NCBI GenBank assembly: GCA_050740255.1
Contig: JBOICV010000150.1
Coordinates: 22,048-86,047 of the forward strand
Direction: 5' to 3'
Origin: Nevskiales bacterium
GTDB lineage: Bacteria; Pseudomonadota; Gammaproteobacteria; Nevskiales; JBOICV01
DNA length: 64,000 nt
Shown here: positions 9,159 through 60,628 of the stretch, one piece after another
How the letters are laid out: every line of letters starts with the position of its first letter
How positions within the stretch are numbered: the first letter of the stretch is position 1
Notes under the pieces: generated by a model
The model's database searches: none
What the model was told of the DNA's origin: nothing
What the model saw: the letters and a program-made list of their open reading frames with translations, nothing else
Position numbers and translations under genes: made by a program

Positions 9159-9247
9159 GTCATCGCGAGGAACAGAGTGACGAAGCGATCTCGCAAGTTT
9201 CTGAGTCGCATAAAGGCGAGATTGCTTCACTGCGTTCGCAATGACAA
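9159..9247. mobile_element. MITE/REP-like palindromic element, family A
   Basis: Nested inverted repeats: GTCATCGCGAGG...TCGCAATGAC, and CGAAGCGATCTCGC...GCGAGATTGCTTC. The same arms recur at 12051-12100. Confidence 0.75.
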
Positions 9248-9269
9248 TTCCACCCTTGACAAAGATTTC

Positions 9270-30539: not shown

Positions 30540-31877
30540 ATGTCCTCCGCTGCCATGTCGGCACCGCCACCGAGCCCACCGGGCCATTGGCTATTCGGTC
30601 ACCTGCTCTCCTTTCGCAAGGATGTGCTTGGCAATCTCGCGCGCTGGTCTACGCTCGGGCCGGTCGTGCAACTGCGCTTGCTGAACAAGCCCGCGTATCT
30701 GATCAATGAGCCGGCGCTGATTGAATATCCGCTGGTTTCGAATCACAGAAACTACATCAAGAACCAGTTTTTCTGGCGCCATGTGAAGCCACTGGTCGGC
30801 AACGGCCTGCTCACCTCCGAGGGCGATTTCTGGCGCCGTCAGCGGCGGCTCTCGGCGCCGGCCTTCCATGCGCCGCGCATCGCCGAGTATGGACAGGTGA
30901 TGGTGGATTACACGCTGCGCGAAATGCAGCGCTGGCGCCCGGACGAAACACGCGACCTGCACCGCGACATGATGGCGCTGACTTCCAAGATCGTGGCCAA
31001 GACCTTATTCGACGATGACCATGTGGAAGGCGATCTCGGCGAAGTCGGCGCGGCCATGGACACCATGGTCGAGGAGATTGCGCAGCGCCTGGTGCTGCCG
31101 TTCAAGCTGCCGGACTGGCTGCCGATGCAGCGCCGTTATTTCGCTGCCATCGCGAGCCTGCACACCGTGGTGGAGCGCTTCATCGCCGATCATCGCGCGG
31201 CGCCGCAGCCGAAGAACACCCTGCTCGGCATGCTGATGGCGGCGCGCGACGAAGACGGAGCCGCGATGTCGGATCGGCAGTTGCGCGATGAGTCCATCAC
31301 GCTGTTCCTGGCCGGTCATGAGACCACCGCAATTACCCTGTCCTGGACGCTGTGGTTGCTGTCGCAACACCCCGAGGTCGAAGCGCAGCTTGCTGATGAA
31401 CTGCGCAGCCTCCACGGGCAGCCGCCGCAGGTCGGCGATCTGCCGCGGCTACGTTACACGGACTGGGTGGTGAAGGAATCCATGCGGCTTTACCCGCCCG
31501 CCTATCTGATCGGCCGCGAAGCGGTCAACGCGGATAGCATCGGCGGCCACGCCATTCCGGCAGGCGCCGTTATTTATCTGTCGGCCTGGGCCTTGCATCG
31601 CAATCCCTTGCATTTTCCCGAACCGCTGCGCTTTAGCCCTGAACGTTGGGGTAATGATCTCGAAAAACGCCTGCCGCGCTTCGCTTATATGCCCTTCGGC
31701 GGCGGACCGAGAACCTGCATCGGCGATCGCTTCGCGGTGATGGAAGCGGTTTTGATTCTGGCGGCGTTGATCCAGCGCTACCACTTCAGCTACGCTGCCG
31801 AAAAAGCGCCGACGCCTTACCCTTCAATCACCCTGCGCCCCATGCAGGGTGTGCCGATGACCCTTGCGTTGCGCTAG
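30540..31877 (+). CDS. Cytochrome P450
   Basis: Heme-binding loop FGGGPRTCIGDRF, I-helix LAGHETT, ExxR (ESMR). Confidence 0.93.
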   Translation: MSSAAMSAPPPSPPGHWLFGHLLSFRKDVLGNLARWSTLGPVVQLRLLNKPAYLINEPALIEYPLVSNHRNYIKNQFFWRHVKPLVGNGLLTSEGDFWRRQRRLSAPAFHAPRIAEYGQVMVDYTLREMQRWRPDETRDLHRDMMALTSKIVAKTLFDDDHVEGDLGEVGAAMDTMVEEIAQRLVLPFKLPDWLPMQRRYFAAIASLHTVVERFIADHRAAPQPKNTLLGMLMAARDEDGAAMSDRQLRDESITLFLAGHETTAITLSWTLWLLSQHPEVEAQLADELRSLHGQPPQVGDLPRLRYTDWVVKESMRLYPPAYLIGREAVNADSIGGHAIPAGAVIYLSAWALHRNPLHFPEPLRFSPERWGNDLEKRLPRFAYMPFGGGPRTCIGDRFAVMEAVLILAALIQRYHFSYAAEKAPTPYPSITLRPMQGVPMTLALR

Positions 31878-31885
31878 TTTTCTGC

Positions 31886-31933
31886 CCGTTCGCCCTGAGG
31901 TATCGAAGCCTGTCCTGAGTTCGTCGAAGGAGG
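31886..31933. repeat. Family D composite unit
   Basis: CCGTTCGCCCTGAGGTATCGAAG fused to CCTGTCCTGAGTTCGTCGAAGGAGG. Confidence 0.8.
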
Positions 31934-31938
31934 CGAGG

Positions 31939-32880
31939 CTACATCGGCACCAGATCGCCGGCGTAACCCGCGCAGATACCGCCTGCCCCCACATTGACCA
32001 CGGCGGTGGCGCTCATGATGGAAAGCATCAGCGTCAGCTCGCGTTCCTGACAGGCGCGCTCCAGTTCCGCGTAACCCGCCATATTGCGCACCTCGTCCAG
32101 ATCGCCGCCATAGCTCACCACCACATATTTGGACAAAAGATTGGCGGTTTTCACCGACTTTGCGATATGCAAGAGCATCTTTTCCACCGCGCCGTCGTAA
32201 CCGCGTACCTTGGCAACAGGCTTGGTATCTTCCCTGTAAATGCCGAGTACCGGTTTGATGTCGAGCGCGGTGCCGATCAGATAAGTCGCCAGTCCAACGC
32301 TCTTCTCGCCGCGGCTTAGCGCACGGATGCGGATATAGGCCAGATCGGCGGGCACGAAATAGCCGACTACGTTGGGGATTAGCTGATCGAGGTTGGCGCG
32401 GATTTCGTTGGGCTGCAAACCCTCTTGCGCCATGCGTACCGTCTCGGCAGCGACCAGGCCGACGCCGCAGAACAAGGTCTTGGAGTCAATCACGCGCATG
32501 GAAAAAGGCCCGGTGACGCCGGCGGCGCTGCGGGTCTTCCGATAGGTCGAAAGAATCGCAAAGGACGCCTTGGTCGCGTTCTCGTAGACGTGGCTGCGCT
32601 TGCTCCAGACCGTGATGCAGAACACGAAGTCGTAGTCCAGCACCAGCCGCTCGAGAAAGACTTTTTGTATCGCATCCACCGAGAACGGCGAGGTCTCGGC
32701 GTCATGGCTCTTGTCGCCGATGTGGCTGGAAAAGAAAGCCAGCGTGGCGTCAGGATCACGCTCGTCCACCAGAGTGTCCTGGCCGATGCGGATGCTATTC
32801 GGGAAAATCTTGACGCCGTGTTCCTCCATAAATTCCGGAGGCAAATCGCAACTGGAATCCACCACCACGCCGATCCGCAT
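31939..32880 (-). CDS. DegV-family fatty-acid-binding protein
   Basis: MRIGVVVDSSCDLP N-terminus, about 310 aa, DegV-like pattern throughout. Confidence 0.8.
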   Translation of the reverse strand: MRIGVVVDSSCDLPPEFMEEHGVKIFPNSIRIGQDTLVDERDPDATLAFFSSHIGDKSHDAETSPFSVDAIQKVFLERLVLDYDFVFCITVWSKRSHVYENATKASFAILSTYRKTRSAAGVTGPFSMRVIDSKTLFCGVGLVAAETVRMAQEGLQPNEIRANLDQLIPNVVGYFVPADLAYIRIRALSRGEKSVGLATYLIGTALDIKPVLGIYREDTKPVAKVRGYDGAVEKMLLHIAKSVKTANLLSKYVVVSYGGDLDEVRNMAGYAELERACQERELTLMLSIMSATAVVNVGAGGICAGYAGDLVPM

Positions 32881-34572: not shown

Positions 34573-35418
34573 ATGTCCGCAGTCATGCCTTTTGAAGCCC
34601 TCACCGCCGCCAGCGGTGGATTCTCGTCGCTGCTGAAAGCCTGGCGTGGCGCGCGCAAATTGAGTCAGCTCGATCTGGCGCTGGAAGCCGGCGTGTCGCA
34701 GCGGCACTTAAGTTTTCTGGAATCCGGCCGGGCGCAGCCGAGCCGCGAGATGGTGCTGCAGCTTTGCGACGCGCTGGATGTGCCGCTGCGCGAGCGCAAC
34801 ACCCTGCTGGAAGGCGCCGGCTTCGCCGCGCTTTACCGCGAACGCGGACTCGATAGCGCCGAGATGAACGTCGTGCGCCAGGCGCTGGAAATATCGCTCA
34901 AGCACCACGAGCCATTTCCGGCGATCGTGGTGAATCTCGACTGGAACATCGTGCTGCGCAACCAGCCGGCGGAGAAATTTCTGGGCTTGCTCGGTCCGCC
35001 GGAAAAAGTCTGGGCGCGGGTTGATCCCAGCGGTGAATTCAATGCCATGCGCATGACCTTGCATCCGCAAGGTATGCAGCCGCTCCTGAAAAACTGGGAG
35101 CAGGTGGTAACTCTGATTTTGAGCCGCTTGCAGCGCGAAGTTGCGGCTGCTCCCGCCAGCCATAAATTGCGCGCCTTGTATCAGGAAGTCAGCGCTTATC
35201 CCGGCATGCCCGCACGCATGCTGACCAACTGGCAGGCACCGCCGCCGCCGATTCTGCCGCTCGAGCTGGGCGTCGGCGATGTTTCACTGAAGGTGTTCAC
35301 CATGATCTCGACTTTCGGCACCGCCCAGGACATCACCGCCGACGAGCTGCGGCTCGAATACTTTTATCCGGGCGACGATTTCACCGCGGATTTCTTCCGG
35401 CGGCTGGCGGACAGCTAA
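34573..35418 (+). CDS. MmyB-like XRE-family helix-turn-helix transcriptional regulator
   Basis: HTH region LSQLDLALEAGVSQRHLSFLESGRAQPS, followed by a ~200-aa C-terminal ligand-type domain. Confidence 0.8.
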   Translation: MSAVMPFEALTAASGGFSSLLKAWRGARKLSQLDLALEAGVSQRHLSFLESGRAQPSREMVLQLCDALDVPLRERNTLLEGAGFAALYRERGLDSAEMNVVRQALEISLKHHEPFPAIVVNLDWNIVLRNQPAEKFLGLLGPPEKVWARVDPSGEFNAMRMTLHPQGMQPLLKNWEQVVTLILSRLQREVAAAPASHKLRALYQEVSAYPGMPARMLTNWQAPPPPILPLELGVGDVSLKVFTMISTFGTAQDITADELRLEYFYPGDDFTADFFRRLADS

Positions 35419-35569: not shown

Positions 35570-36940
35570 TCACGTCATTGGCGCTACGACCGGCCGATAC
35601 TTGGGTCTCCGATCGTCCACCCGCTTTGCCTTTGATACGGCGCGCGGCAGCGTGTTGGGCCGGAGTACTTCAATCGTGAAGTTGATGTTGGTGTCGTTCT
35701 TGAGTTTGCGTTGTACGCGCTCACCAAGATCGGCTGCGAGCGCGTCGAAGTCTTCCGCCTTCAGCGATGGATCAATTTCCACTTGAACCGTCGCCTGATC
35801 CAGGGCGCCTTTGGATTCCATGACGATCAGGAATTCAACGCCGGTTCCCGCGACCTCCAGCAATGATCGCTGAACCTGGCTCGGATACACGTTGACGCCA
35901 CGGATGATCAGCATATCGTCAATACGGCCGTATACGCCGAATGGCAGGCGCGGGTAGGTCCGGCCGCAGGCACAGGGCTTGTACGTCATCAGCGATTCGT
36001 CGCCGGAATGGAACCGGATCATCGGTTGTGAATCGCGGCGCAGGTGCGTGTAGATGATGACGCCTTCACCCTCCTCCGGAACCGGCAGGTTCGGATCGGA
36101 CTTGTCGACAATCTCGGTCCAGACCTGATCCTGAATGACGTGCATGCCACTACCCGCTTCGCATTCGACATTCGTCGCCCATGGCGTCATTTCGGACGTC
36201 GTACCCATGTCTCTCACGGATATCCCCCAGCCCTTTTCCAGCGTGCGCCGCGTGGCCGGAACGCCCGCTCCCGGTTCTCCGACGAAGATGCCCAGGCGTA
36301 GCGGTGATTGCGCGGTGTCGTAACCGAGCGTTCTTGCGGTTTCGAGCATGTGTAAGGCATAGGTGGGCGTAGTCACCAGTACGGTGGAGCCCACCCGCCA
36401 CATGAGCTGCAATTGCCGTTCGGTCTCGCCGGCGCCCAGCGGGAAAGCGGTCGCGCCGATGCGTTCTGTGGCGAGCAGGGCGCCCCAACCGCCCATGAAC
36501 AGACTGAACAGGGTCGCCAGTTGGACTTTGTCATCCGGTCGGACGCCGGCCGTATAGAACGCCTGCGCCATGACCTCGGCGATATAGCTCCAGTCGTTCT
36601 TCGATATCGCATACAGCGTTGGGGTACCGGTGGTCCCGGATGAGCCGTGGATTCGCGCAATCGTCCCATTTTCCGCGCCCAGGTACGAGCCAAACGGCGG
36701 GTGTTTAGCCTGGTCTTCGCGCAGCATCTGTTTGGTGATGATGGGCACCTTTCGCGTGAAGTCCTCCAGCGACTTGACCTGGGACGGGTGGAACCCGGCT
36801 CGCTGGTAGTGTTCCCGGTAAAATGCTACCCGCTCGTACACGCGATGTAGCTGATGTTGGATCAGTGTGAGGACTTCCGCTTCGCGTTCCTGGCGCGACA
36901 GCGTCTCTTTGGACTTCGCCCAAAACACACTCTCGCTCAT
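35570..36940 (-). CDS. Phenylacetate-CoA ligase (PaaK)/F390-synthetase-family acyl-CoA ligase
   Basis: ATG at 36940 is preceded by GGAGGAAAAGCA. AMP-binding P-loop GSSGTTGTPT. 456 aa, the size of the PaaK family. Confidence 0.85.
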   Translation of the reverse strand: MSESVFWAKSKETLSRQEREAEVLTLIQHQLHRVYERVAFYREHYQRAGFHPSQVKSLEDFTRKVPIITKQMLREDQAKHPPFGSYLGAENGTIARIHGSSGTTGTPTLYAISKNDWSYIAEVMAQAFYTAGVRPDDKVQLATLFSLFMGGWGALLATERIGATAFPLGAGETERQLQLMWRVGSTVLVTTPTYALHMLETARTLGYDTAQSPLRLGIFVGEPGAGVPATRRTLEKGWGISVRDMGTTSEMTPWATNVECEAGSGMHVIQDQVWTEIVDKSDPNLPVPEEGEGVIIYTHLRRDSQPMIRFHSGDESLMTYKPCACGRTYPRLPFGVYGRIDDMLIIRGVNVYPSQVQRSLLEVAGTGVEFLIVMESKGALDQATVQVEIDPSLKAEDFDALAADLGERVQRKLKNDTNINFTIEVLRPNTLPRAVSKAKRVDDRRPKYRPVVAPMT

Positions 36941-37049
36941 TGCTTTTCCTCCATTCCTGCATGCGGCGGCGATGGGATTCGCCAGTGGCCCAGCCATCGC
37001 GCCCGACGCTTGTGACGTCTTGAACAATCAAGCGCGTTCGAGTATAACA

Positions 37050-37061
37050 AAACAAATGTTT
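37050..37061. promoter_or_regulatory. Short palindrome in the AT-rich ligase/TetR divergent intergenic region (candidate operator)
   Basis: AAACA-aa-TGTTT, 19 nt upstream of the TetR start. Weak evidence, position-based only. Confidence 0.2.
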
Positions 37062-37079
37062 ACTTAGCTATGGGGTCAT

Positions 37080-37673
37080 ATGAGGCCTGCGATCAGTCCT
37101 GTCAGACGGCAGAACAACCGGATTCAGCCCTTGCTGGACGCGGCGGCGGCGCAGTTTGCGCACCACGGCTACCACGGAACCACGATTCGTGACATCGCAG
37201 TGGGCGCCGGCATGACGCCGGGCGCCGTCTACTTCCACTTCGCATCGAAACACGCGCTGTTGCTCGAAGTGTACGAAGAAGGTGTGCGCAGGGTGTTGAG
37301 CCGACTGGATCAAATTGCCGCGCCGGAAGCCGCTGCCTGGCAGCAACTGGAGAAAATGGCCATCGCGCATTTACAGGCGATTCTTGACCAAAGTGACTAT
37401 GCGCGCGTCGTGATCCGCGTCTTTCCCGATGACGTCAAAGAAGTGTCGGATGAATTGAAGTCTCAGCGAAATCTGTACGAGAAGCGGTTTCGCGCCGTCA
37501 TAGACGAGATCCCCAGACTGAGTCCCCGCGAGCGGAAGTTCGCTCGGCTCTTGTTGCTGGGCGGCCTGAACTGGACGCCCTCCTGGTACCGGCCGGACCA
37601 GGACGGTGTCGATGCAATTGCCAGGGTATTCACCCGCCTGCTGCGGCGGGATAACGATCAGAGGGAGACATAG
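37080..37673 (+). CDS. TetR/AcrR-family transcriptional regulator
   Basis: N-terminal HTH FAHHGYHGTTIRDIAVGAGMTPGAVYFHFASK. Confidence 0.85.
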   Translation: MRPAISPVRRQNNRIQPLLDAAAAQFAHHGYHGTTIRDIAVGAGMTPGAVYFHFASKHALLLEVYEEGVRRVLSRLDQIAAPEAAAWQQLEKMAIAHLQAILDQSDYARVVIRVFPDDVKEVSDELKSQRNLYEKRFRAVIDEIPRLSPRERKFARLLLLGGLNWTPSWYRPDQDGVDAIARVFTRLLRRDNDQRET

Positions 37674-37675
37674 CC

Positions 37676-38119
37676 ATGACGATACGCGCTGCGCCACCAC
37701 GAGTCGTGGTCACGAAAATCGGTCTCGATGGTCACGACCGTGGCAGCCGGATTATCGCCGCCTTTCTGCGCGACGCCGGGATGGAAGTGATCTATACGCC
37801 ACCCTGGCAGACGATTGATGCCGTGGTAAGAATTGCGAGCGACGAAGACGTTGACGTCATCGGCATCAGTTCCCTGGCGACCGATCATCGTATCGTGCCG
37901 CAGCTCATGGATGCGCTGCGGCAGCGCGGGCTGACGCACATCGGCGTCGTGGTCGGCGGAATCGTGCCGGCCGATGAGAAACCCGCGCTGCTGGAAAGCG
38001 GCGTCAGCCGCATCTTTGATCCCGGTTCCTCACGCGACGATATTGTTGCCTGCGTCGGCAAGCTCGCTGCTCAAGCGCAACTGGCGCGCGCTCAGAACAT
38101 CGGCGGAGAGTCGCCTTGA
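37676..38119 (+). CDS. Acyl-CoA mutase small subunit (cobalamin-binding domain)
   Basis: DxHxxG motif (LDGHDRG), GISSL (SxL) and VVGG, the classic base-off/His-on B12-binding signature. Confidence 0.9.
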
Positions 38120-39795
38120 AGAAGAACCCAGCCCCGCTCCAGGTAGCTGCGCCCGAAACGGCGCATTCAATCTGGACGCAGGAATACCGGTCCCAGATCG
38201 GGGATCAAACGATCCGCAATCGCTCGGACCTCGAGATTCATCCGCTCTATCTCCCGGACGGCAAGGAGGCCGAGGGATATGCGGCGAAACTAGGCTTCCC
38301 GGGTCAATTCCCTTACACCCGCGGCATCTACCCAACGATGCACCGCGGCCGCACCTGGACCCAGCGGCAGCTCATAGGCCTTGGAGTTCCACAGGACTAC
38401 AACGAGCGCGTGCGCCACCTTTTGGAGCACGGCGCGACCGCGATCAGTCTGCTGCCCTGCAATTCGGGCTTCCGCGGAGTTGATTGCGACGAGGTTGACC
38501 CCTTGTTGCTCGGCACCTGCGGAACCGTGATCAATACCACCGATCACATGGATGCCGCGCTGGCCGGCGTGCCGATAGAAACCATATCCACCGCGCTGAA
38601 CGACCCGTCGCCATTTACCTTGCTGGCATTTCTGCTGGGTACCGCTCGACGGCGCGGCGTTGCCTGGACCCGCCTTACCGGCACCTCGAATCAGAGCGAC
38701 TACATCTCCCACTACGTCGCCAACCACATGTTCTACCGGCTCTCGCTGGCCGGCTCCCGTCGCGTGTTGCTGGATCACATCGAGTTCTGCCGGAAGCATG
38801 TTCCAAACTGGCATCCGGTATCGGTGGTCGGACAGCACATGCAGCAGGCCGGAGCGACGCCCGCCGAAACCATGGGATTCACCCTCTCAACCGCGATTCA
38901 GTACGCCGAGGACTGCATCGCTCGCGGCATGGATGCGGACCTGGTGCTGAAGCGCTACAGCTTCTTCTTCGATATCTCCATCAGCTTTTTTGAGGAAGTC
39001 GCGAAGTTTCGCGCGGCCCGGCGGATCTGGGCGCGGATTGCACGCGAGCGGCTCGGAGCGAAGCATCCCGTCTCCTGGCGATTCAAGTTTCATGGCCAGA
39101 CCTCGGGCGTGGACCTGACGCAGCAGCAACCTTTGAACAATATTGCGCGCGTCGCCATTCAGGCAGCCGCGGGAATTTTCAGCGGTCTTCAGTCTCTGCA
39201 CACGGACGCTTATGACGAAGCGATTTCCACTCCGACCGCGGAATCGGCGCGTATCGCGGTGGCGACCCAGAACATATTGCGCGATGAAGCGCGCCTGTGC
39301 GATGTGATTGATCCGCTGGGCGGCTCGTACTACGTGGAGTCCCTGACGGACGACATGGAGCGGCAAATCGAGGCGGTCATCGCCAAGATTGACGCCGCCG
39401 GCGGCATGTACAAGGCGGTTGAATCCGGCATTGTGCAACGCATGATTGGGCAATCCGCGCTGGCCTTTCAACAGCGGGTTGAAAGCGGCGAACAAAAAAT
39501 CGTCGGCGTCAATTGTTACCAGACTGAGGAATCCAATTCGACGATCCAAAAGACCGAACGGCCAGACCTTGCCCGGGTCACGTCATTTGTTGAAGGTTTC
39601 AAAGCGTTCAAGGCCTCACGCAGCCAGGCGGCCGTGCGATCGGCGCTGGACGCGCTGGCCAGGGCGAGCAACTCGAAGACAGAAAATGTCTTCGAGCGTG
39701 TCATCGAGGCGGCGGACGCTGGCGTCACCCACGGCGAAATCGTCGCCTGCCTGCGCAAGGAACTTGGCTTCGGTCAGCCCCTCGTGTTCGTATGA
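38116..39795 (+). CDS. Acyl-CoA mutase large (catalytic) subunit, divergent subfamily
   Basis: [60 protein letters not shown] and [10 protein letters not shown] are collinear with methylmalonyl/isobutyryl-CoA mutases. Overlaps the small-subunit stop. Confidence 0.9.
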
Positions 39796-40769
39796 ACGCG
39801 AGCGTGGCCGGCATTGACCGAGTGACCCACATACAAGGCTTGGCGGAAAGGGTCGTTCTTCGGGACCGGGCTGCGATTGGCCGTGCGATCACCCTGATCG
39901 AGAACGATTCCGCCGAAGGCGCCGAGTGCCATCGGCTGCTTCAACAGCATCGTGGAAAGGGGCTGGTGATAGGAATCACCGGACCGCCGGGCGCCGGCAA
40001 GTCCACGCTGATCGGGGCATACATAAACCTGTTGCGGAGAGAAAATAAAACCGTCGCGGTCATCGCGATTGACCCGTCGAGCCCCTTGACCGGCGGCGCC
40101 ATTCTTGGCGATCGAATCCGCATGTCAGATCATGCCGCGGATGACGGCGTATTCATTCGCTCCGTCGCTTCGCGCGGACACGTGGGCGGCCTGTCCGCCA
40201 CGGTTCACGGCGTGATCCAGGTGATGGAAGCGGCCGGTTATGACGTGGTCATTGTCGAGACGGTCGGGGCGGGCCAGTCTGAAACCGAAGTCGCTCAGAT
40301 CGCGGACATCAAGGTCGTGGTCATGGCCCCTGGCCTGGGCGATCACGTACAGGCAATCAAAGCGGGGATTCTGGAGATCGCGGACATTCTGGTCGTCAAC
40401 AAGGCAGATTCGCCGCTGGCGGATCAGGCCGCGCTGGAGCTAAGGGACATGCTGAAGCTCCGCAGGGAATCCGCGCGAGCCGTTGCCGTTGTGAAAACCA
40501 AGGCGATCTCCGCTGAAGGCCTGGACGAACTCGCAGGCGCGATCCAGCACATCGCCGGCAGGCTCGCTGCTGGCGGCAAGGCCGCTCGCGACAGAGACAG
40601 GGCTCGCGCCATGCTCGCATGGGCAGCAGCCGAACTCGTCAGAGGTGAACTCATCAACAGCCGGTCGCAGACCGTCGTGGATCTGTGCGAGGCGGTCACC
40701 CTGGGCAAGCAAAGTCTTTCCTCGGCGGCGGCGGCACTGGTGAGTCCCCTGCTGGAGAGACTGCGTTAA
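39792..40769 (+). CDS. meaB: MeaB/ArgK-type G3E GTPase (mutase chaperone)
   Basis: P-loop [31 protein letters not shown] overlap with the mutase gene. Confidence 0.9.
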
Positions 40770-40775
40770 GGCCGG

Positions 40776-42083
40776 CTACTTGAGTAGTCCCGAATTCACG
40801 ATCGCCCGCGCATAGCCGGCCTCCGCCCGTTCGTTGCTGGTCGAGAACACGGCAACCACCGCATCGTGTGCCGGTGACACATAAATTCCCTGGCCATGGA
40901 ATCCACTCTTGTAGAGATCACCGTCCTTGAATACCGCGTCCCACTGCCAGGAGTATGCAATCGGTTCCTCGCCAAACGTCGCCACCATCGCCGCGAGCTT
41001 TTGCGGTTTCACGTGGAGCTTGTGTCGCCCTCCATGCTGAATCATATCGAGCACCGCGTCGGGAACAGCCGCCATCGCGGACTTTTTCAGGGGCTTTCCG
41101 CTTGGTGTGAACGCCATCCCGAACCGGGCCATGTCGCGCAGGCGCGATGAGAACATGCCGTGCGCGATGGCGTCGCCTTCGGGCGTCAGCCCTGCCATCG
41201 CGTCGCCCTCGGCGCCGATTCGTGACCAGATACGTTCGGTCACGAGGTCCGCGTAGCGCTGACCGGTCACGCGCTCGAGCAGCAGGCCCAGCATGTTCGT
41301 ATTTGCCGACGAGTATTCAAACGCCTCTCCCGGCGGACGTTTGCGGGTCATGCTCATCAGCGCCTGCCGATGTCCGAGGGCCGGCGCCGCCACGGGCGGC
41401 GTGAGGATGCGCTCGGCAAAAATCAGACGGCTCAGTTCGGATTTCGGCGAACTGTAGGACTCAAGGCCCAAATCCTCCGCATTGATTCCGCTGGCCTGGT
41501 CGGCCAGATCGCGCACTGGCGTGCCTTTCCAGCCGCTCGTCGCGAACTCCGGCAGGTAGTGCTCCACCGGCTGGTCTGCGTCGAGCCTTCCTTCGGCAAC
41601 GAGCTGCGCAGCCAACAAGCCAGCCAGCGTCTTGCTGGCCGACCACCACAGATGATTGTCGTTGGGCCGCATGCCTGGATACTGCTCGTAAACGATTCTC
41701 CCGCGATGCACGACGATGTAGCCCTGCACGCGTGACCGGGGATCCTTCAGCATGTCGTCCAGTGACAACTCGCCCAGCGCAGTCCTGACCACGACTCCGC
41801 CGATCTTCGGATTGGGCGCCACCGGCAGTTCGCGTATCGAGCCGGACCGCGACACCACCTGGTGCGGGAAGAACTGCGCCATGTTGAGGTACATGTAAAG
41901 CGTCTGATCACGGGCCGCGGGCGTCTGCTGCGGGTCGTAGCTCTCCTGTATGGCGCGGGCTTCCTCGGCCGGGAATCCCCGGGCCGCCTGTGTCACCGGC
42001 GCGAACCTGGCCTGCGGGACCTCGGCAGACGCCAGGCTAGTGAACAACAGGGCCGGAAATGCAAGCGTTCTCGCGAGCTGCAT
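40776..42083 (-). CDS. Secreted serine hydrolase (beta-lactamase/class C-like family)
   Basis: Signal peptide MQLARTLAFPALLFTSLASA. SxxK motif (SASKTL). Confidence 0.85.
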   Translation of the reverse strand: MQLARTLAFPALLFTSLASAEVPQARFAPVTQAARGFPAEEARAIQESYDPQQTPAARDQTLYMYLNMAQFFPHQVVSRSGSIRELPVAPNPKIGGVVVRTALGELSLDDMLKDPRSRVQGYIVVHRGRIVYEQYPGMRPNDNHLWWSASKTLAGLLAAQLVAEGRLDADQPVEHYLPEFATSGWKGTPVRDLADQASGINAEDLGLESYSSPKSELSRLIFAERILTPPVAAPALGHRQALMSMTRKRPPGEAFEYSSANTNMLGLLLERVTGQRYADLVTERIWSRIGAEGDAMAGLTPEGDAIAHGMFSSRLRDMARFGMAFTPSGKPLKKSAMAAVPDAVLDMIQHGGRHKLHVKPQKLAAMVATFGEEPIAYSWQWDAVFKDGDLYKSGFHGQGIYVSPAHDAVVAVFSTSNERAEAGYARAIVNSGLLK

Positions 42084-42095
42084 GTGATCTCTCCG

Positions 42096-43175
42096 TTATG
42101 TTGCTGCCAGGTAATTGCCGCAGCCGATGATTACTGTCGACGCCACCAGCGTCGCGATGCCAAGCCAGACCCCGCGCCGCACGCCAACACTCGAGCCGGC
42201 CCATTCCTTCAGCGCAAAGCCCCATAGCGTGGAAAAAATGATGATGCTGGCCATGTGCAGGGTCCAGCTCGAAAAACCGTAGGCGCCCATCTGGCTCTCG
42301 CCCATGGTGTAGAAGAAGAATTGGAAGTACCACAAGGTTCCGCCTAGCGCCGACAGCAGGTAATTGCGCCACAGCGGTGGCGGGGTCCCGTCAGCGTCCG
42401 CCGCCGGGCCCGGCCGGCCGACGAATTCGCCCGCGGACGCGTTACGCAAAATCAGACCAAGGCACCAGATGAAATTAGTGGTGAAGCCGCCGAACAAGAC
42501 GACGCACAATACCGGCAGCCCCTGCCATAGCGCGTGGGTGCCGGCCGCGAGCGAGAGTTCGCGGATCGGCGCTCCGGCAGCAAGGCCAAAGGCAAAGCAA
42601 CTGCTCATCACGCCCGAGAAGATGGCGACGAGTATCCCCTTGCGAAAATCGAACTCGGCGATCGCTGCCTGGCGCTGTTCGATGCTCAGCTCCCGCTCTT
42701 TTGCCCGGCCGGCGCGTGCGACCACGATGATTCCGAGAATCGCGACGCCGATACCGGCCAAAGTGGTCATGCCGCTGGCCGTGGAGGCCAGGGCCAGCAC
42801 CTGACCGCGGAAGATCGGTGGTCCCATCGTCCCGATTACGGTGGTCAGACCGAGCGCGACCGCCATGCCCAGAGACATGCCGAGATAGCGCATGGTCAGG
42901 CCGAAAGTGAGTCCACCGAAACCCCACAGTGCGCCCCATAGCCAGCACCAGAACAGCGTCTCGCTCGGGGCCGCCGATAACACAGCAAGCAAGTCCTTGG
43001 TACGCAGACTGGCAAACAGCCAGGGCGCGATGACCCAACTGAACACGCCGCCAACCAGCCAGAAAATCTCCCAGGACCAGCGGCGCACGCCTTTGTAAGG
43101 CACGTAGAAACTGGCGGACGCCAGACCGCCGAGCCAGTGGAACACCACACCCAGCAGCGGATTCGGAACCATCAA
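42096..43175 (-). CDS. rhaT: L-rhamnose/H+ symporter RhaT family
   Basis: 359 aa, 10 TM helices. N-terminus [28 protein letters not shown] is typical of RhaT. Rhamnose-cluster context. Confidence 0.85.
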
Positions 43176-44353
43176 GATCTCCCCTTCACGTTGTTCTGGT
43201 AATCCATTCCGCCATCCACCAGGATGCTGCGGTCAATGGCGGAAACGCGAGTGCAGCCGGTGAGCGCCATTGCCACGCGCATCTCCGCCGCAAGCAATTC
43301 GAGCAAGTGCGCGACCCCGGCCTGTCCCTGCGCCGCGAGCGCGTAGGCCCAGGCGCGGCCCAGCAGAACGCCACGTGCACCCAGCGCGAGCAGGCGCACC
43401 ACGTCGAGCCCGGAGCGAATGCCGCCATCGGCAAGAACCGTGAGGCGCTCGCCGACGGCATCCGCGATCGGCGGCAAGGCGCGCACCGTCGAGGGCGCGC
43501 CATCGAGCTGCCGCCCGCCATGGTTGGAAACGACGATGCCGTCGGCGCCGATGTCGGCCGCGGCGCGCGCGTCGTCCGCATCGAGTATGCCTTTCACAAT
43601 GAGCGGCCCGCGCCACTGCGAGCGCAGCCATTCGAGGTCCTTCCAGGTGACACTCGGATCGAAGTTCTCCCGCATCCAGGCGAAGAAGTCTTCGAGGCCC
43701 GTATTCGGTCCGAGCACCGGCGCGACATTGCCCAGTGCATGCGGGCGGCCACAGATGCCCACGTCCCAGGCCCAGGCGGGACGCAATAGCGCCTGGCCGA
43801 AACGACGCAGCGACCCCGCGAGACCGGACGCGCCCGCAAGTCCGGAACGGTAGTCGCGATAGCGCGTGCCTGGCACCGGCATGTCAACGGTGAAGACCAG
43901 CGCCGAGCAGCGCGCCGCCGCAGCCTGCGCGAGCAGATCCTGCATGAAGGCCCGATCCCGAATCATGTAAAGCTGGAACCAGATCGGCTGGGTCACATCG
44001 CGCACGACTTCGTCGAGTGGGCAAGCCGAGACGGTGGACAAAGTGAACGGGATTCCAGCGGCTTCGGCCGCGCGCGCCGCTTGCACCTCGCCGCGCCGCG
44101 CGTTCATGCCGGCGAGCCCGATTGGCGCCAGCGCGACCGGCATCGCCAGCTTCTGGCCGAACAGCTCGACCGACAAATCCAGACTCGACACGTCGCGCAG
44201 CACGCGCGGACGCAACTCGATGCCGGCAAGATCTTCGAGATTGCGCCGCAGCGTGACTTCCGCGTAGGAGCCGCCATCAATGTACTCGAACAGAAACTTC
44301 GGTAGACGCCGCCGCGCGAGCTCGCGGTAGTCCAGCGGCGATGCCGCTTTCAT
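43172..44353 (-). CDS. FMN-dependent alpha-hydroxy-acid dehydrogenase (L-lactate dehydrogenase LldD-like)
   Basis: [17 protein letters not shown]-terminal YIDGGS. Overlaps rhaT and the kinase gene. Confidence 0.88.
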
Positions 44354-45759
44354 GCCGCTGCCTCCCTCTGTGCGATCGCCTTGAGCCAGCGGCCGCGATA
44401 GTCGGAGAGATCGAGCTCCAGCGGAGCGGCCTCGGTGAGGCGCGTAGATGGTGCGAGCCGCGGATCGATCAGTCGCAAGGCGCCGTAGGACACGTCGTTA
44501 TCGACGTTGCAAATGTATGTTTTCGCAGCGGGCCGGAGCGAAGCCAGCGCGCGGACGAACAGCTCCGCATGCGCAAAGCGTCCCTCGATGAGAATGCGCT
44601 CCTGCGCACCGATCAAGCCGAGCGAAACATCGGCCACCAGGGCGGCATAGAGACAGATTGCCGCGCGCCGCTCGGCCGCAACCGCGGGCATGGAAGTCCA
44701 GCGGCCACGGCTTATTGGAAACGGTCCGCAACCCGGCCTGAAGCTCGGCAACACCATGGCGCCGCTACCCAGCAGCTTGGGCAGGGCGGCAAACAGATCC
44801 GCTTGATCGGCCGTCGTGTCGATACGCGCATCCGTAGACAGCAGGATTTCGATCTCGCGACCGCCCATGAACCTTGCGGAGGGCACGGGACGAGCATCGA
44901 CGTCGACATTGACCAGACAATCTCGCGCTTCCGGTAGTCCCGCAATCGCGATCTCGGCGTCAGAAGCTGGGGTGCGCATGGCCACGAACCAGGTGCCGGT
45001 CGACAGCACGGTCGATTCCCGGCCCGCGATTTCGGGAAAGCTGCGTGCGGCCAACAGGGATGCGTTGGAATCGTGCAGGCCGCAATAGATACGAACCTCG
45101 GGCGATAGGCCGGTTCGCACCGCCCATTCCGGCGAGATTGGCCCTAGCACGTCACTCGCCTTGCGCAGGGGCGCAAAATGATCGACCCAGCCACGCGAGC
45201 GGGCGAGAGCCGACGGTGCGCCCGCGAGCGGCTGCCAGAGATCGGAGTGACAGCCAAGACTGGTCACCTCGGAAGCAGCGATGCCCGAGAGCAACCACGC
45301 CCAGTATTGCGGCCACGGCAGAATGAGCGCATGGCCGGTCAGAAGATCCGGGACCAGCCGCTCAAGCTGATGTAGCTGCGCTCCGAGATTCAGCCCATCC
45401 GGGAGAGCCGGCGAGCCGGTCAACAAGAAACGGTCGCGACCGGAGTTGTACTGGGCACGCTCGACCGCCGGGATCGGTTGCTCATAGTCCATAGGCGGGC
45501 AAACGAGCGAGCCGTCCCGCACGATGGCGACCGCCGCACCGTGGCCGATGGGAATGATGGCCGTGACCGGCGCCGTCCGCGCGAAGTAGCGCAGCACACC
45601 AGTCACCCAGTCCTCGATACCCAGAACATCCAGCGCGACATAATCGCGCGTGTTGACCCTTGCGTTGGGTCGGGATCTGCGCTCGATCAGCGCTCCTTCG
45701 TCCGTCCACAAGCTGAGTTTGGTGAGGCTCTTCCCCACGTCCAGAACGATTATTGCCAC
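44350..45759 (-). CDS. rhaB: FGGY-family sugar kinase (probable rhamnulokinase)
   Basis: 469 aa. N-terminal LDVGKSLTK (actin-fold phosphate-1-like). First gene of a minus-strand operon divergent from rhaEW-rhaI. Confidence 0.75.
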
Positions 45760-45785
45760 CGAGGTTGCCTCATTCTGCTGTATGT

Positions 45786-45812
45786 TGATTGATATATATC
45801 GAATATGATTGA
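45786..45812. promoter_or_regulatory. Candidate operator in the AT-rich rha divergent promoter
   Basis: Direct repeats TGATTGA at 45786-45792 and 45806-45812, 20 bp apart, flank the perfect palindrome GATATATATC (45791-45800). Confidence 0.3.
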
Positions 45813-45871
45813 ATTATGCTAGTCTTTTTGCCACAATCTGACAAATTGGCTCGCCGTGAAGGACGCGTGAA

Positions 45872-47992
45872 ATGAATCAGGTGCTTGAATCCCCGGCGGC
45901 GGCACGCGCTTCATCCGCCTCGCTGTTCCAGGTACCCGACACTCGCTGGTCGGACGCCGAGGCGCAAGCCAAGTCACCCGCCGAACTTCTGCTCTACCGT
46001 TCCAAGCTGCTCGGCGCGGATCTCACGGTCACTAACTTCGGCGGCGGCAACACCTCCGCCAAACTGGAAGCGGCCGATCCGCTCACCGCCGCGACGGTCA
46101 AGGTGCTTTGGGTGAAGGGCTCCGGCGGCGACCTCGGCTCGATGAAGCTCGATGGCTTTGCCACGCTCTACTTCGACAAGCTCCTGGACCTGGAGAAACT
46201 CTATCGCGGTGTCGAGCGCGAAGATGAAATGGCCGGCTTCCTGCCGCACTGCAGCTTCAACCTGAATCCGCGCGCGGCCTCGATTGACACACCACTGCAT
46301 GCCTTTCTCCCCTTCGCGCAGGTTGATCACCTGCACCCGGACGCGGTGACCGCGCTGGCGGCGTCAAGCAACGGCGAGGCCATCACCGCCGAGGTCTATG
46401 GCGGAACAGTCGGCTGGATGCCGTGGCAGCGTCCCGGCTTCGATCTCGGCTTGCGCCTGCGCGAGTACGTCTCGGCGAGGCCCGGCCTGCGCGGTGTCGT
46501 GATGGCCGGCCATGGCCTGATTTGCTGGGGCGACACTTCCAGGAGCTGCTACGAAAACTCGATCAACATCATCGCCGCCGCCGCACGCTACCTGAACCAG
46601 CGTCTTGCGACGGGTCCTGCATTCGGCGGGACTGCCGTGTCACCACAGCCACCCGAACTACGGCTGCGCATTGCGGCGGAGCTGATGCCGCGGCTGCGCG
46701 CAATGATGAGCAGCGAGCGTCCCAAGGTCGGCCATTTCAGCGATGCGCGCGAGTCGCTGGAGTTCGCTTGCAGTCGTGATTTCCGCAAGCTCGCGGCAAT
46801 CGGCACTTCCTGTCCCGATCATTTCCTGCGCACGAAGATCGCGCCGCTGGCGCTTGACCCCGCGCGCGTTGACGACGGGGCTTACCTGCAACAGGCGATC
46901 AGCGATTACCGTCTCGCGTACGCGGCCTACTACCGGCGCTGCGCCAAGCCCGGCGATCCGCCGATGCGCGACGCCAATCCGGTGATCGTGATGCTGCCCG
47001 GGGTCGGCCGCTTCAGCTTCGCTGCCGACAAGACCACGGCGCGCTTGGCGGGAGAGTTCTACGGCAATGCGATCAACGTGATGCGAGGTGCAGGCGCGAT
47101 CGGCGAGTACATCGGGCTCGACGAGCGCGAAGCCTTCGGCATCGAGTACTGGGCGCTGGAAGAGGCCAAGCTGCGCCGCCTGCCCAAAGCCAGATCACTG
47201 GCTGGCCGGATCGCGCTCATCACCGGCGCGGCGGGAGGCATCGGTTCCGCGACGGCCGCGCGCATGCTGGTGGAAGGCGCCTGCGTCATGCTGACCGACC
47301 GCGACGCCGCCGCGCTCGAACAGGCGCGCGCGCGCTTCGCCGCGCAGTTCGGCCACGATGTTGTGCGCGCCATCCCGTGCGACGTCACCAACGAAGGCGA
47401 CGTTACAGCCGCCTTCTCCCGATGCGCGCTTGAATTCGGGGGCTTGGACTTTCTGGTCGCCAATGCGGGCCTCGCGTCTTCAGCACCGATCGAGCAGACC
47501 ACGACTGCCATGTGGAAACTTAACTACGACGTGCTGGCCGCAGGCTATTTTCTGAGCGCGCGGGCGGCATTCCCGCTGCTCAAGCGTCAGGGCGGATCGA
47601 TCGTGTTCATCGGCTCCAAGAACGCGCTGGCGGCGACACCGAATGCCTCGGCTTACGCATCGGCCAAAGCCGCTGCCGTGCACCTCGCGCGCTGCCTCGC
47701 CCTGGAAGGCGCCCCCAGCGGCATCCGGGTGAATGTCGTCAACCCCGACGCGGTGATCCGCGGTTCGCGCATCTGGGACGGCAGTTGGCGCCAGCAGCGC
47801 GCGCAAGCGCACGGGGTAGATTCCGGCGAGGCGCTGGAGCAGCACTACCGCGCGCGCAGCCTTCTAAATCGCGACGTGCTCCCGGAGGACGTTGCGGAAG
47901 CGGTGCTGTTCTTTATTTCCGATGCTTCGGCGAAATCGACCGGCAACATCATCAACGTTGACGCCGGCAATGCTCAGGCGTTTTCACGCTAG
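45872..47992 (+). CDS. rhaEW: Bifunctional rhamnulose-1-phosphate aldolase / lactaldehyde dehydrogenase (RhaEW type: class II aldolase domain plus SDR domain)
   Basis: 706 aa. C-terminal SDR with TGAAGGIGSA and YASAKAA. Large N-terminal aldolase/adducin-like domain. Adjacent to rhaI. Confidence 0.88.
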   Translation: MNQVLESPAAARASSASLFQVPDTRWSDAEAQAKSPAELLLYRSKLLGADLTVTNFGGGNTSAKLEAADPLTAATVKVLWVKGSGGDLGSMKLDGFATLYFDKLLDLEKLYRGVEREDEMAGFLPHCSFNLNPRAASIDTPLHAFLPFAQVDHLHPDAVTALAASSNGEAITAEVYGGTVGWMPWQRPGFDLGLRLREYVSARPGLRGVVMAGHGLICWGDTSRSCYENSINIIAAAARYLNQRLATGPAFGGTAVSPQPPELRLRIAAELMPRLRAMMSSERPKVGHFSDARESLEFACSRDFRKLAAIGTSCPDHFLRTKIAPLALDPARVDDGAYLQQAISDYRLAYAAYYRRCAKPGDPPMRDANPVIVMLPGVGRFSFAADKTTARLAGEFYGNAINVMRGAGAIGEYIGLDEREAFGIEYWALEEAKLRRLPKARSLAGRIALITGAAGGIGSATAARMLVEGACVMLTDRDAAALEQARARFAAQFGHDVVRAIPCDVTNEGDVTAAFSRCALEFGGLDFLVANAGLASSAPIEQTTTAMWKLNYDVLAAGYFLSARAAFPLLKRQGGSIVFIGSKNALAATPNASAYASAKAAAVHLARCLALEGAPSGIRVNVVNPDAVIRGSRIWDGSWRQQRAQAHGVDSGEALEQHYRARSLLNRDVLPEDVAEAVLFFISDASAKSTGNIINVDAGNAQAFSR

Positions 47993-48001
47993 GGGAGCAG
48001 A

Positions 48002-49300
48002 ATGAGCGTTGCCGACCTACCCATCGAAGCTGACTTCATTGGCCAGCACAACGCTGGGCGGCTCAATGCTCTGCAGGACGATTACGAGAGCCTCGGCCGC
48101 GTGTTGAATCGTCGCGGCCTCGCGATCGACGCGATCAAGCGGCGCGCGGCGACTCTGGAGCTGGCGCAGCCCACCTGGGGCGTCGGCGTCGGCGGCACCC
48201 GCTTCGCTCGCTTCCCCATTCCGGGGGAGCCGAACGGTATTGATGAAAAACTGGAAGACTGCGCCGTCGTCCATCAACTGTGCCGAATTACGCCCGGCGT
48301 GTCGCCGCATTTTCCATGGGACAAGGTCGGTGATTCCAGTGCGCTTCGAGATCGCGCGCGCAATCTGGGCCTGCATTTCGACGCCGTGAACTCGAACACC
48401 TTCCAGGATGTGCCCGGTCAGCCGCTCAGTTACCGCCATGGCTCGCTTACCCATACCGACCCGGCGGTGCGGGCGCAGGCCATCGAGCACAACATCGAGT
48501 GCATCCGCATTGGCGAAGCACTGGGGTCGCAGGCGATCACCGTCTGGATTGGCGACGGCAGCAACTTCCCGGGACAGCAGTCGCTCGCGGATTCGCTGGA
48601 CCGCTACCTCGAGTCGGCAGCCCGGATCTACGCGGCGCTGCCCGGCGACTGGCGCATGCTGCTGGAGCACAAGCTCTACGAGCCCGCCTTCTATTCGACC
48701 GTGATCTCGGACTGGGGCACCAGCATCCTCGCAGCGCAGCAGCTCGGGCCGAAGGCGCAGTGTCTGGTGGACCTCGGCCACCATGCACCGAGCGTCAACA
48801 TCGAACAGATCGTCGCACGCCTGCATCGCTTCGGAAAACTCGGCGGCTTTCACTTCAACGACTCGAAGTACGGCGACGACGACCTCGATTCCGGCTCAAT
48901 CAACCCGCACCAGTTATTCCTCGTCTTCAACGAACTGGTGGAAGCCGAGAAACGCTCTCCTCAAGACTTCAAGCCGGCCTACATGATTGATCAGTCGCAC
49001 AACATCACCGATCCGATCGAAAGCCTGCTCTCCAGCGCCGAAGCGATCGCCGGGGCTTTCGTGCGTGCCTTGCTGGTGGATCGCGAAGCGCTGGCCGAAT
49101 ACCAGCGCAACAACGACGTGATGATGGCGTTCCAGACGCTGCGCCGCGCCTACAACCTTGACGTCGCGCCAATCCTGGCGATGGCTCGCCACGAGGCCGG
49201 TGGCGCAATAGATCCCATCGCTGCCTACCGCGAGTCCGGTTGGCGCCAGCGCAAGGCCCGCGAACGCCGCCCGGTCACAGCGGGCAGCGGGATCGTATGA
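48002..49300 (+). CDS. rhaI: L-rhamnose isomerase (Pseudomonas stutzeri-type RhaI, xylose-isomerase-like TIM barrel)
   Basis: 432 aa, with size and context of the RhaI type that partners RhaEW. Motifs HFNDSKYGDDDLD and DQSHN. Confidence 0.85.
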   Translation: MSVADLPIEADFIGQHNAGRLNALQDDYESLGRVLNRRGLAIDAIKRRAATLELAQPTWGVGVGGTRFARFPIPGEPNGIDEKLEDCAVVHQLCRITPGVSPHFPWDKVGDSSALRDRARNLGLHFDAVNSNTFQDVPGQPLSYRHGSLTHTDPAVRAQAIEHNIECIRIGEALGSQAITVWIGDGSNFPGQQSLADSLDRYLESAARIYAALPGDWRMLLEHKLYEPAFYSTVISDWGTSILAAQQLGPKAQCLVDLGHHAPSVNIEQIVARLHRFGKLGGFHFNDSKYGDDDLDSGSINPHQLFLVFNELVEAEKRSPQDFKPAYMIDQSHNITDPIESLLSSAEAIAGAFVRALLVDREALAEYQRNNDVMMAFQTLRRAYNLDVAPILAMARHEAGGAIDPIAAYRESGWRQRKARERRPVTAGSGIV

Positions 49301-59162: not shown

Positions 59163-59241
59163 CGCTTGCTCCTCCTATTGCTCGGCTCGAGTTCTGTCGA
59201 GCCTGGAATCAATACCAGCCGATTGAACGACCGTGATCACC

Positions 59242-60516: not shown

Positions 60517-60530
60517 CTTATAAATCTCGT

Positions 60531-60628
60531 GTCATTCTGAGCCCAGCGAAGAATCTCGCTTTGGCGCCATCGGAAAATAGATCCTTCGCGGAGCCTGTCC
60601 TGAGCGAAGTCGAAGGGCTCAGGATGAC
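60531..60628. mobile_element. MITE-like composite element (family A-like and D-like modules)
   Basis: Terminal inverted repeats GTCATTCTGAGCC / GGCTCAGGATGAC. Internal CGAAGAATCTCGC and CCTGTCCTGAGCGAAGTCGAAGGG. Confidence 0.8.

Follow-up and report, generated by a model that had tools for sequence, protein, structure and literature searches.

A predicted pivalate catabolic module built around a pivalyl-CoA mutase orthologue in a Nevskiales bacterium

Introduction

Quaternary carbons, such as that of the tert-butyl group of pivalate (2,2-dimethylpropionate), resist degradation, and few routes of attack on them are known; B12-dependent carbon-skeleton mutases provide one. A 64,000-nucleotide stretch of contig JBOICV010000150.1 from a Nevskiales bacterium (the whole stretch is called the window below) carries a compact cluster that may encode such a route. 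A minus-strand acyl-CoA ligase gene lies divergent from a plus-strand operon for a TetR-family regulator, the small and large subunits of an adenosylcobalamin (AdoCbl)-dependent acyl-CoA mutase, and a MeaB-type G-protein. A preliminary description of the DNA had read the mutase as probably an active enzyme, with a substrate pocket unlike any characterised class, and the question that the locus raises is which acid it handles. We find that the mutase groups by sequence with pivalyl-CoA mutase (PCM), and we consider it likely that the cluster serves, under TetR control, the catabolism of a short tertiary-branched acid, with pivalate the best candidate.

Results

The mutase is orthologous to pivalyl-CoA mutase

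Searching public proteins gave relatives in the thousands at about 75% identity, among them a Xanthobacter protein that both NCBI and UniRef name 'pivalyl-CoA mutase large subunit'. When plasmid records were searched by tblastn, pXAUT01 of X. autotrophicus Py2 was among the top matches, with 74% identity and 99% query coverage. Exact-sequence look-up identified its product, Xaut_5043, as UniProt A7IQE5, whose recommended name is 'Pivalyl-CoA mutase large subunit' (short name 'PCM large subunit'), and the adjacent Xaut_5044 as 'Pivalyl-CoA mutase small subunit'. The Xanthobacter protein with the PCM name at NCBI is nearly identical to Xaut_5043. Kitanishi, Cracan and Banerjee (J Biol Chem 2015) reportedly characterised the X. 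autotrophicus enzyme.

The likeness extends across the operon. The large subunit is 74% identical to Xaut_5043 over 558 amino acids, the small subunit 65% identical to Xaut_5044, MeaB 55% identical to Xaut_5042, and the TetR protein 52% identical to Xaut_5045 from residue 9 on; because this last alignment begins at residue 9, the start that gives a 197-residue regulator is supported. The motifs RQLIGLG, ISLLPC, ANH and GQH are the same in Xaut_5043, which carries FFEEIAKFRAGRRIWA, and the window protein. Judged by its sequence, the large subunit is a member of the PCM clade and an orthologue of Xaut_5043. The preliminary description had listed PCM among the classes to be compared but had not recognised its sequence signature, and had taken the pocket to be unlike any characterised class; instead, the protein nests inside the PCM clade, at 74% identity to A7IQE5, an outcome that the description itself had named as refuting its reading. 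In public records the window protein, like most of its relatives, goes under no more specific label than 'methylmalonyl-CoA mutase' or 'acyl-CoA mutase family'; the right label is pivalyl-CoA mutase.

The features of the cluster are as follows, HCL being the 2-hydroxyisobutyryl-CoA synthetase of Aquincola.

35570..36940, minus strand: HCL-like (PaaK-superfamily) acyl-CoA ligase, predicted pivalate-CoA ligase; 456 amino acids, ATG at 36940
35570-37027, minus strand: longer ligase reading frame of the preliminary description, TTG start at 37027
36941..37079, no strand: divergent intergenic control region, with a -35/-10 pair found by eye and an operator-like palindrome
37048..37063, no strand: putative TetR operator CAAAAC-AAAT-GTTTAC, a degenerate copy of the clade palindrome CTAAAC-N4-GTTTAG
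37080..37673, plus strand: TetR-family regulator, first gene of the operon; TetR_N and TetR_C_24 domains, 197 amino acids
37676..38119, plus strand: PCM small (B12-binding) subunit, pcmB orthologue; 147 amino acids, PF02310 and TIGR00640
38116..39795, plus strand: PCM large (substrate-binding) subunit, pcmA orthologue; 559 amino acids, PF01642
39792..40769, plus strand: MeaB-type G-protein chaperone of the mutase; 325 amino acids, PF03308 and TIGR00750

The five-gene arrangement, spacing and motifs given in the preliminary description were all found: a six-frame list of open reading frames contains the five frames at its coordinates, with a 2-nt gap between the TetR and small-subunit genes and overlaps of 4 nt each at the small/large and large/MeaB junctions. 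The ligase start is set at ATG 36940 by both the NCBI gene call and the alignment to HCL, which leaves a divergent intergenic region of 139 bp as against 52 bp with the longer frame. For MeaB, the NCBI gene call makes an alternative start at 39804 possible.

Domain assignments agree with an intact AdoCbl acyl-CoA mutase accompanied by a G-protein chaperone, as had been proposed. The large subunit matches MM_CoA_mutase (PF01642) with 542 bits over profile positions 3-512, that is, at full length. The small subunit matches Pfam B12-binding with 84 bits and carries DGHDRG (37727-37744), GISSL (37862-37876) and VVGG (37949-37960). MeaB scores 280 bits against PF03308 and 297 bits against TIGR00750, above the latter's cutoff of 241, which places it in the MeaB family; it has the P-loop GPPGAGKST at 39981-40007 and an NKAD motif. 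With PF01642, the DxHxxG/SxL/GG motifs and the catalytic-site His, the window proteins display the hallmarks of the AdoCbl acyl-CoA mutase superfamily.

The substrate pocket carries the PCM signature

We assigned the specificity positions from HMMER pairwise alignments to solved structures and from a MAFFT alignment. The closest solved structure to the large subunit is HcmA, the large subunit of 2-hydroxyisobutyryl-CoA mutase (HCM). Leu86 stands where methylmalonyl-CoA mutase (MCM) has Tyr89 and HcmA has Ile90, and Leu113 takes the position of HcmA Asp117. Where MCM and HCM have the conserved Asp of their 'FD' motif, the window protein has Cys115, and Asn203 occupies the position of MCM Arg207, a Gln in HcmA. 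Gln240, at the position of MCM Tyr243, is an addition to the preliminary description, and His241, the equivalent of MCM His244, is retained. The earlier by-eye alignment (Leu at Tyr89, no Asp at HcmA-117, neither Arg nor Gln at Arg207, catalytic His intact) was upheld by both HMMER and MAFFT.

The accompanying claim that the enzyme is not MCM, isobutyryl-CoA mutase (ICM), ethylmalonyl-CoA mutase (ECM) or HCM is likewise supported. In place of the Tyr89 and Arg207 that mark MCM the protein has Leu86 and Asn203, and it scores 404 bits against the NCBIfam MCM equivalog, whose cutoff is 876. The Ile90 and Asp117 of HcmA are Leu86 and Leu113, and overall identity to HcmA is 34%. The pocket residues of ICM and its fused form IcmF are Phe and Gln, and here they are Leu and Asn, a comparison made with this two-residue rule; the IcmF model gives 220 bits against a cutoff of 1500. 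ECM membership is unlikely because the protein is 74% identical to PCM. The PCM signature itself is complete, with Leu86, Leu113, Pro114, Cys115, Asn203, Gln240 and His241 as in Xaut_5043, and only positions 116 and 205 differ. Xaut_5043 has the same residue at every position that had been flagged, which refutes the view of a pocket without parallel among the characterised classes.

PCM sequences form a discrete clade with two pocket subtypes

In a scan of one genome per species, 535 of 185,579 species-representative genomes encode a relative; the module is widespread. The best 80 loci of these 535 genomes and two plasmid loci make up the set of 82 loci used below; the outgroups were confined to HcmA and three MCMs, with sequences taken from PDB alignments. 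Compared over 518 well-aligned columns, clade members share 68-78% identity with the window protein. No pair within the clade falls below 64%, whereas HcmA and the three MCMs reach at most 37% to any member, and among the plasmid records identity falls from 61% to 41% with nothing between. At the level of sequence the PCM clade is discrete. Among its carriers, Xanthobacteraceae and Bradyrhizobium from soil, roseobacters from the sea, and actinomycetes predominate.

Read across 16 positions of the pocket region, 13 loci have exactly the window string, LILLLPCNQYVNHMQH. Nine residues (Leu86, Leu89, Pro114, Cys115, Gln193, Asn203, His204, Gln240 and His241) do not vary between the window and any of the 82 loci, and all nine positions differ from HcmA and MCM save for the common Gln193 and His241. 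Positions 87, 112, 113, 116, 200, 201 and 205 vary conservatively, Leu113 being Ile in 14 loci. Positions 116 (window codon 38461-38463) and 205 (codon 38728-38730) covary: Asn/Met, the window type, is found in 71 of the 82 loci, Cys/Gln in 10 and Cys/Met in one. Both main subtypes occur with a ligase of the window's kind, in 11 Asn/Met loci and 3 Cys/Gln loci.

The divergent ligase resembles 2-hydroxyisobutyryl-CoA synthetase

The ligase has the Pfam domains AMP-binding and AMP-binding_C_2, and its best match among solved structures is Aquincola HCL (6hdw; E 1.4e-105, 357 bits, 40.5% identity). HCL is a specific ligase for the tertiary-branched 2-hydroxyisobutyrate, and its gene stands in an operon with hcmAB or rcmAB and meaH (PMC7176365). 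PaaK structures score about 220 bits against the window ligase, and the PaaK equivalog TIGR02155 gives 296 bits against a cutoff of 646. The earlier label 'PaaK-type ligase' holds at the level of the PaaK superfamily, but the closest structure is HCL and the score falls short of the PaaK cutoff. Public sources label this ligase clade only 'phenylacetate-CoA ligase family'.

Tyr164 and Ser239 of HCL reportedly hydrogen-bond the substrate hydroxyl (Zahn et al., J Mol Biol 2019). The HCL chain in the PDB has Tyr175 and Ser250, which both fit a single 11-residue tag offset, as deduced for the HcmA chain too. The window ligase has Phe148 (36497-36499) and Val220 (36281-36283) there, in the numbering of the 456-residue protein, and all 14 orthologues linked to PCM genes have Phe and Ile. 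With identity of only 40.5% and neither Tyr164 nor Ser239, the protein is HCL-like rather than an HCL. Pivalate is 2-hydroxyisobutyrate with a methyl in place of the hydroxyl, so Phe and Val at the hydroxyl-ligand positions would fit a pivalate pocket. These substitutions suggest that the ligase probably activates pivalate. The proposal of the preliminary description that the ligase activates the free acid of the mutase's substrate is probably right.

Gene order is conserved across PCM loci

Counts over the 82 loci were as follows.

Small subunit: 80/82 loci
MeaB, after the large subunit: 78/82 loci
TetR homologue (at least 36% identity) within ~8 kb: 70/82 loci
TetR homologue directly upstream of the mutase genes, same strand: 61/82 loci
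PaaD/4HBT-like thioesterase: 20/82 loci
Orthologue of the window ligase (64-71% identity) within ~8 kb: 14/82 loci

Conservation of the five-gene neighbourhood, which had been put forward as a check, holds for the TetR-small-large-MeaB core, which is nearly universal, but not for the ligase orthologue. Where present, ligase orthologues are mostly divergent upstream, as in the window, often with a PaaD-like thioesterase gene alongside; they accompany PCM genes in Bradyrhizobium, Roseiarcus, Prescottella, Nocardioides and several metagenome-assembled genomes (MAGs). Among cultured strains, Bradyrhizobium erythrophlei CGMCC 1.13002, Roseiarcus fermentans DSM 24875, Prescottella agglutinans and Nocardioides sp. 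Root140 have all five genes. On one MAG contig (locus L084, JASCQU010015089.1, 3299-8829) the TetR, small-subunit and large-subunit genes are followed by a 774-residue MeaB-ligase fusion (P0229) and a 4HBT thioesterase. This protein is either a true fusion or a frameshift or assembly artefact; as a fusion in one MAG, it would be further evidence of functional linkage.

Two plasmid loci show other surroundings. On a plasmid of Sphingobium sp. YC-XJ3 (L082, NZ_CP117472.1, 190032-209681) two copies of the TetR-small-large(-MeaB) module stand about 10 kb from each other, separated by IS6100 and ISSp1 transposase genes, and each copy has a divergent pair of genes for a thiolase and an AMP-binding protein in place of the HCL-like ligase. 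On pXAUT01 (L081) the PCM operon adjoins genes for a 2-hydroxypropyl-CoM lyase, an oxidoreductase and an SDR of an epoxyalkane/coenzyme M pathway (Xaut_5046-5052).

A palindrome upstream of the TetR gene is a putative operator

Cross-locus comparison revealed a consensus palindrome upstream of the TetR gene in most loci, GCTAAAC-N4-GTTTAG(T), in letters GCTAAACGATCGTTTAGT. Of 62 regions that precede the TetR gene, 41 contain its core, AAAC-N4-GTTT, as against 45 of 6363 windows of 150 nt tiled over the same whole loci, upstream regions included, so that nearly all copies lie upstream of the TetR gene. X. autotrophicus has a palindrome in the same place, GCTAAACGATCGTTTAG, its form of the consensus being ATGCTAAACGATCGTTTAGTTAG. 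The window copy, CAAAACAAATGTTTAC at 37048-37063, has one mismatch per arm, and only one other AAAC-N4-GTTT occurs in the 64 kb.

By eye, a tentative promoter can be drawn from TTGAAC (37021-37026), a 17-nt spacer and TATAAC (37044-37049). A consensus promoter scan did not list this pair, whose -10 hexamer ends in C. The palindrome overlaps and follows the -35/-10 pair. A generic inverted-repeat search of the intergenic region returned only a GC-rich 12-nt pair (36964-37005), and the putative operator surfaced through the cross-locus comparison only. The TetR protein would autoregulate its operon and probably also control the divergent ligase gene.

Genes around the cluster

Directly past the 3' end of the ligase gene, at 34573-35418, lies a gene for an MmyB-like regulator (HTH_3 and MLTR_LBD). 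We rejected it as a member of the module: a single weak match (25%, in L038) was found among the 82 loci. A gene for a beta-lactamase-fold hydrolase, downstream at 40776-42083, was likewise rejected, with no match in any of the 82 loci. About 3 kb upstream of the cluster, 30540-32880 holds a cytochrome P450 gene (445 amino acids) and, convergent with it, a gene of the DegV family; that L084 too has a DegV gene close to its PCM operon is probably coincidence. Other upstream neighbours are UvrD and an Opp-type ABC transporter.

Downstream, 42096-49300 is a sugar-catabolism cluster resembling a rhamnose pathway. It encodes a RhaT-type transporter, an FMN-dependent dehydrogenase, an FGGY-type kinase, an AP_endonuc_2 (xylose-isomerase-like TIM-barrel) protein and a 706-residue class II aldolase/short-chain dehydrogenase fusion. 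Two TonB-dependent receptors, a carboxylesterase, a glucokinase and a GH3 glycosidase follow the sugar genes. Three long reading frames in the window (1339-3666, 9177-11336 and 59233-60540; 775, 719 and 435 amino acids) have no Pfam match at E <= 1e-5.

Discussion

Orthology of the four core genes to the X. autotrophicus PCM operon, identity of the pocket core, shared gene order, the HCL-like ligase and the conserved palindrome, all features of the sequence, point to a module that converts a tertiary-branched acid. From them we infer the substrate of the ligase, the function of the operator, the direction of flux and a link to downstream isovaleryl-CoA catabolism. In the scheme that we propose, the ligase would adenylate and thioesterify free pivalate to pivalyl-CoA, using ATP and CoA. 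Leu86, Leu113 and Asn203 of the large subunit would be part of the hydrophobic pocket in which pivalyl-CoA binds. AdoCbl, held by His20 of the small-subunit DGHDRG motif, would generate the 5'-deoxyadenosyl radical, and a radical 1,2-shift of the thioester-bearing carbon would turn pivalyl-CoA into isovaleryl-CoA. MeaB would gate the loading and repair of the cofactor and guard it, and isovaleryl-CoA would pass into the ordinary leucine/isovalerate pathway, served by genes in other parts of the genome. The palindrome, which overlaps the putative promoter of the operon, is probably bound by the TetR protein, and the acid or its CoA ester would release the regulator.

Comparison with known systems places this scheme. 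The PCM operon on pXAUT01 comprises TetR (Xaut_5045), small subunit (Xaut_5044), large subunit (Xaut_5043) and a LAO/AO ATPase that corresponds to MeaB (Xaut_5042), and continues with a PaaD-like protein (Xaut_5041) and a PaaK-like, putative phenylacetate-CoA ligase (Xaut_5040). The two-subunit architecture, the TetR-small-large-MeaB order, the pocket signature and the family of operator-like palindromes are common to both. By contrast, the ligase gene there is downstream and of PaaK type, whereas in the window it is divergent upstream and HCL-like; the window operon, unlike that of X. autotrophicus, has no adjoining PaaD/4HBT thioesterase gene; and the window copy, in a Nevskiales MAG, appears to be chromosomal, while the other is on a plasmid.

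The preliminary description had named the hcl-hcmAB-meaH system of Aquincola as the only similar arrangement, and this is indeed the best analogue: among solved structures, none comes closer to the window mutase than HcmA or to the ligase than HCL. In Aquincola tertiaricarbonis L108, HCL (6hdw), HcmAB (4r3u) and MeaH follow the same logic of ligase, split B12 mutase and chaperone (PMC7176365). The Aquincola ligase, like that predicted for the window, is a dedicated PaaK-superfamily enzyme for a tertiary-branched C4/C5 acid. The two systems differ in that the mutases are about 34% and the ligases 40% identical, and the regulator is GntR there and TetR here. The residues tied to the hydroxyl in Aquincola are hydrophobic in the window, HcmA Asp117 becoming Leu113, and HCL Tyr164 and Ser239 becoming Phe and Val. 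By this analogy, the window system would work like the HCL-HcmAB-MeaH pathway, for a non-hydroxylated analogue.

Two other mutases bear on the scheme. IcmF has a side activity on pivalyl-CoA/isovaleryl-CoA and resembles the window enzyme as an AdoCbl mutase for uncharged branched acyl-CoAs that depends on a MeaB-type G-domain (PMC10481361); it differs as a single fused polypeptide and matches only window residues 214-491 (167 bits). MCM (P. shermanii 1req, human 2xij) has in common the fold, the radical 1,2-shift, His244, Gln197 and the B12-binding DxHxxG motif. It differs in the carboxylate-binding Tyr89, Arg207 and Tyr243, here Leu86, Asn203 and Gln240, and overall identity is 32-34%.

Several points weigh against the assignment to pivalate. 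The interconversion of pivalyl-CoA and isovaleryl-CoA by the window enzyme is a prediction from sequence. The experimental standing of PCM is taken here from UniProt and NCBI names; a full-text literature search returned nothing relevant on pivalyl-CoA mutase, pivalate degradation or pivalate-CoA ligase. The characterised X. autotrophicus enzyme has Cys116/Gln205 where the window has Asn116/Met205, and residue 205, two past the Arg207 equivalent, could touch the substrate. As for the ligase, the role of Tyr164 and Ser239 as hydroxyl ligands is the reported one and was checked for consistency of numbering only, the X. autotrophicus ligase Xaut_5040 is a different PaaK-type protein (26% identical), and the HCL-like ligase is encoded within ~8 kb in only 14 of the 82 loci. 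Isovaleryl-CoA catabolic (liu) genes were sought in the 64-kb window and none were found. The proposed -10 element is without the invariant final T.

Some of these points are also what favours the earlier reading of an active AdoCbl mutase of a new substrate class, whose ligase activates some other acid. The pocket is unlike MCM, ICM, ECM and HCM at the canonical positions, Asn116/Met205 differs from the Cys116/Gln205 of the one assayed PCM, and the ligase is of another type than that of X. autotrophicus. However, the large subunit is 74% identical to PCM with Leu86, Leu113, Pro114, Cys115, Asn203, Gln240 and His241 all the same, TetR, small subunit, MeaB and putative operator are shared, and both pocket subtypes accompany the same HCL-like ligase (11 and 3 loci). 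Orthologues this close with an identical pocket core usually share their substrate, and we regard a new class as unlikely. A module running the other way, from isovaleryl-CoA to pivalyl-CoA, for instance to supply a tert-butyl starter unit for lipids or polyketides with the ligase salvaging isovalerate, is less probable again. Acyl-CoA mutase reactions are reversible. tert-Butyl starter units exist in actinomycete products (PMC5355916). Yet neither in the window nor in the loci inspected is the cluster flanked by genes of polyketide or fatty-acid biosynthesis, and in its pocket the ligase is similar to one that is specific for a tertiary-branched acid. A repressor-controlled ligase-mutase module, with a 4HBT/PaaD-like thioesterase near in 20 of 82 loci, looks catabolic.

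The closeness of HcmA and HCL in structure, together with the analogous gene content (PMC7176365), could also suggest a variant 2-hydroxyisobutyrate pathway, with HCL and an HCM-like mutase as in Aquincola. We think this most improbable: Ile90 and Asp117 of HcmA are both Leu, identity to HcmA is about 34%, the ligase is 40% identical to HCL and lacks Tyr164 and Ser239, and a TetR protein stands in place of the GntR-type regulator usual in hcl-hcm clusters (PMC7176365). That the locus is an inactive remnant, a pseudoenzyme or decaying operon, as the change of the universally conserved 'FD' Asp to Cys and of Tyr243 to Gln might imply, is hardly credible. The same substitutions are present in the UniProt-named PCM and invariant over the 82 loci, the reading frames are intact with translational coupling, and the B12 and GTPase motifs are intact.

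With pivalate degradation as the preferred reading, the cluster is a new copy of a known enzyme system, and it leaves the picture of acyl-CoA mutase diversity unchanged. What it adds to known PCM is modest: a predicted clade of pivalate-CoA ligases, a conserved putative operator, and a split into two covarying pocket subtypes, the assayed one being the minority. The HCL-like clade, in which Phe and Val/Ile stand for HCL Tyr164 and Ser239, may represent a dedicated pivalate-CoA (neo-acid) ligase, the first of its kind. The majority Asn116/Met205 subtype may differ in substrate range from the one assayed Cys116/Gln205 enzyme, and might prefer larger quaternary-carbon acyl-CoAs such as 2,2-dimethylbutyryl-CoA. 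These two related possibilities, taken together, are a rather doubtful prospect; either, if true, would establish the way in which a clade present in 535 of 185,579 species-representative genomes deals with quaternary carbons. The candidate pivalate-CoA ligase and the predicted TetR operator could find use in biosensors and in engineering routes to and from tert-butyl compounds.

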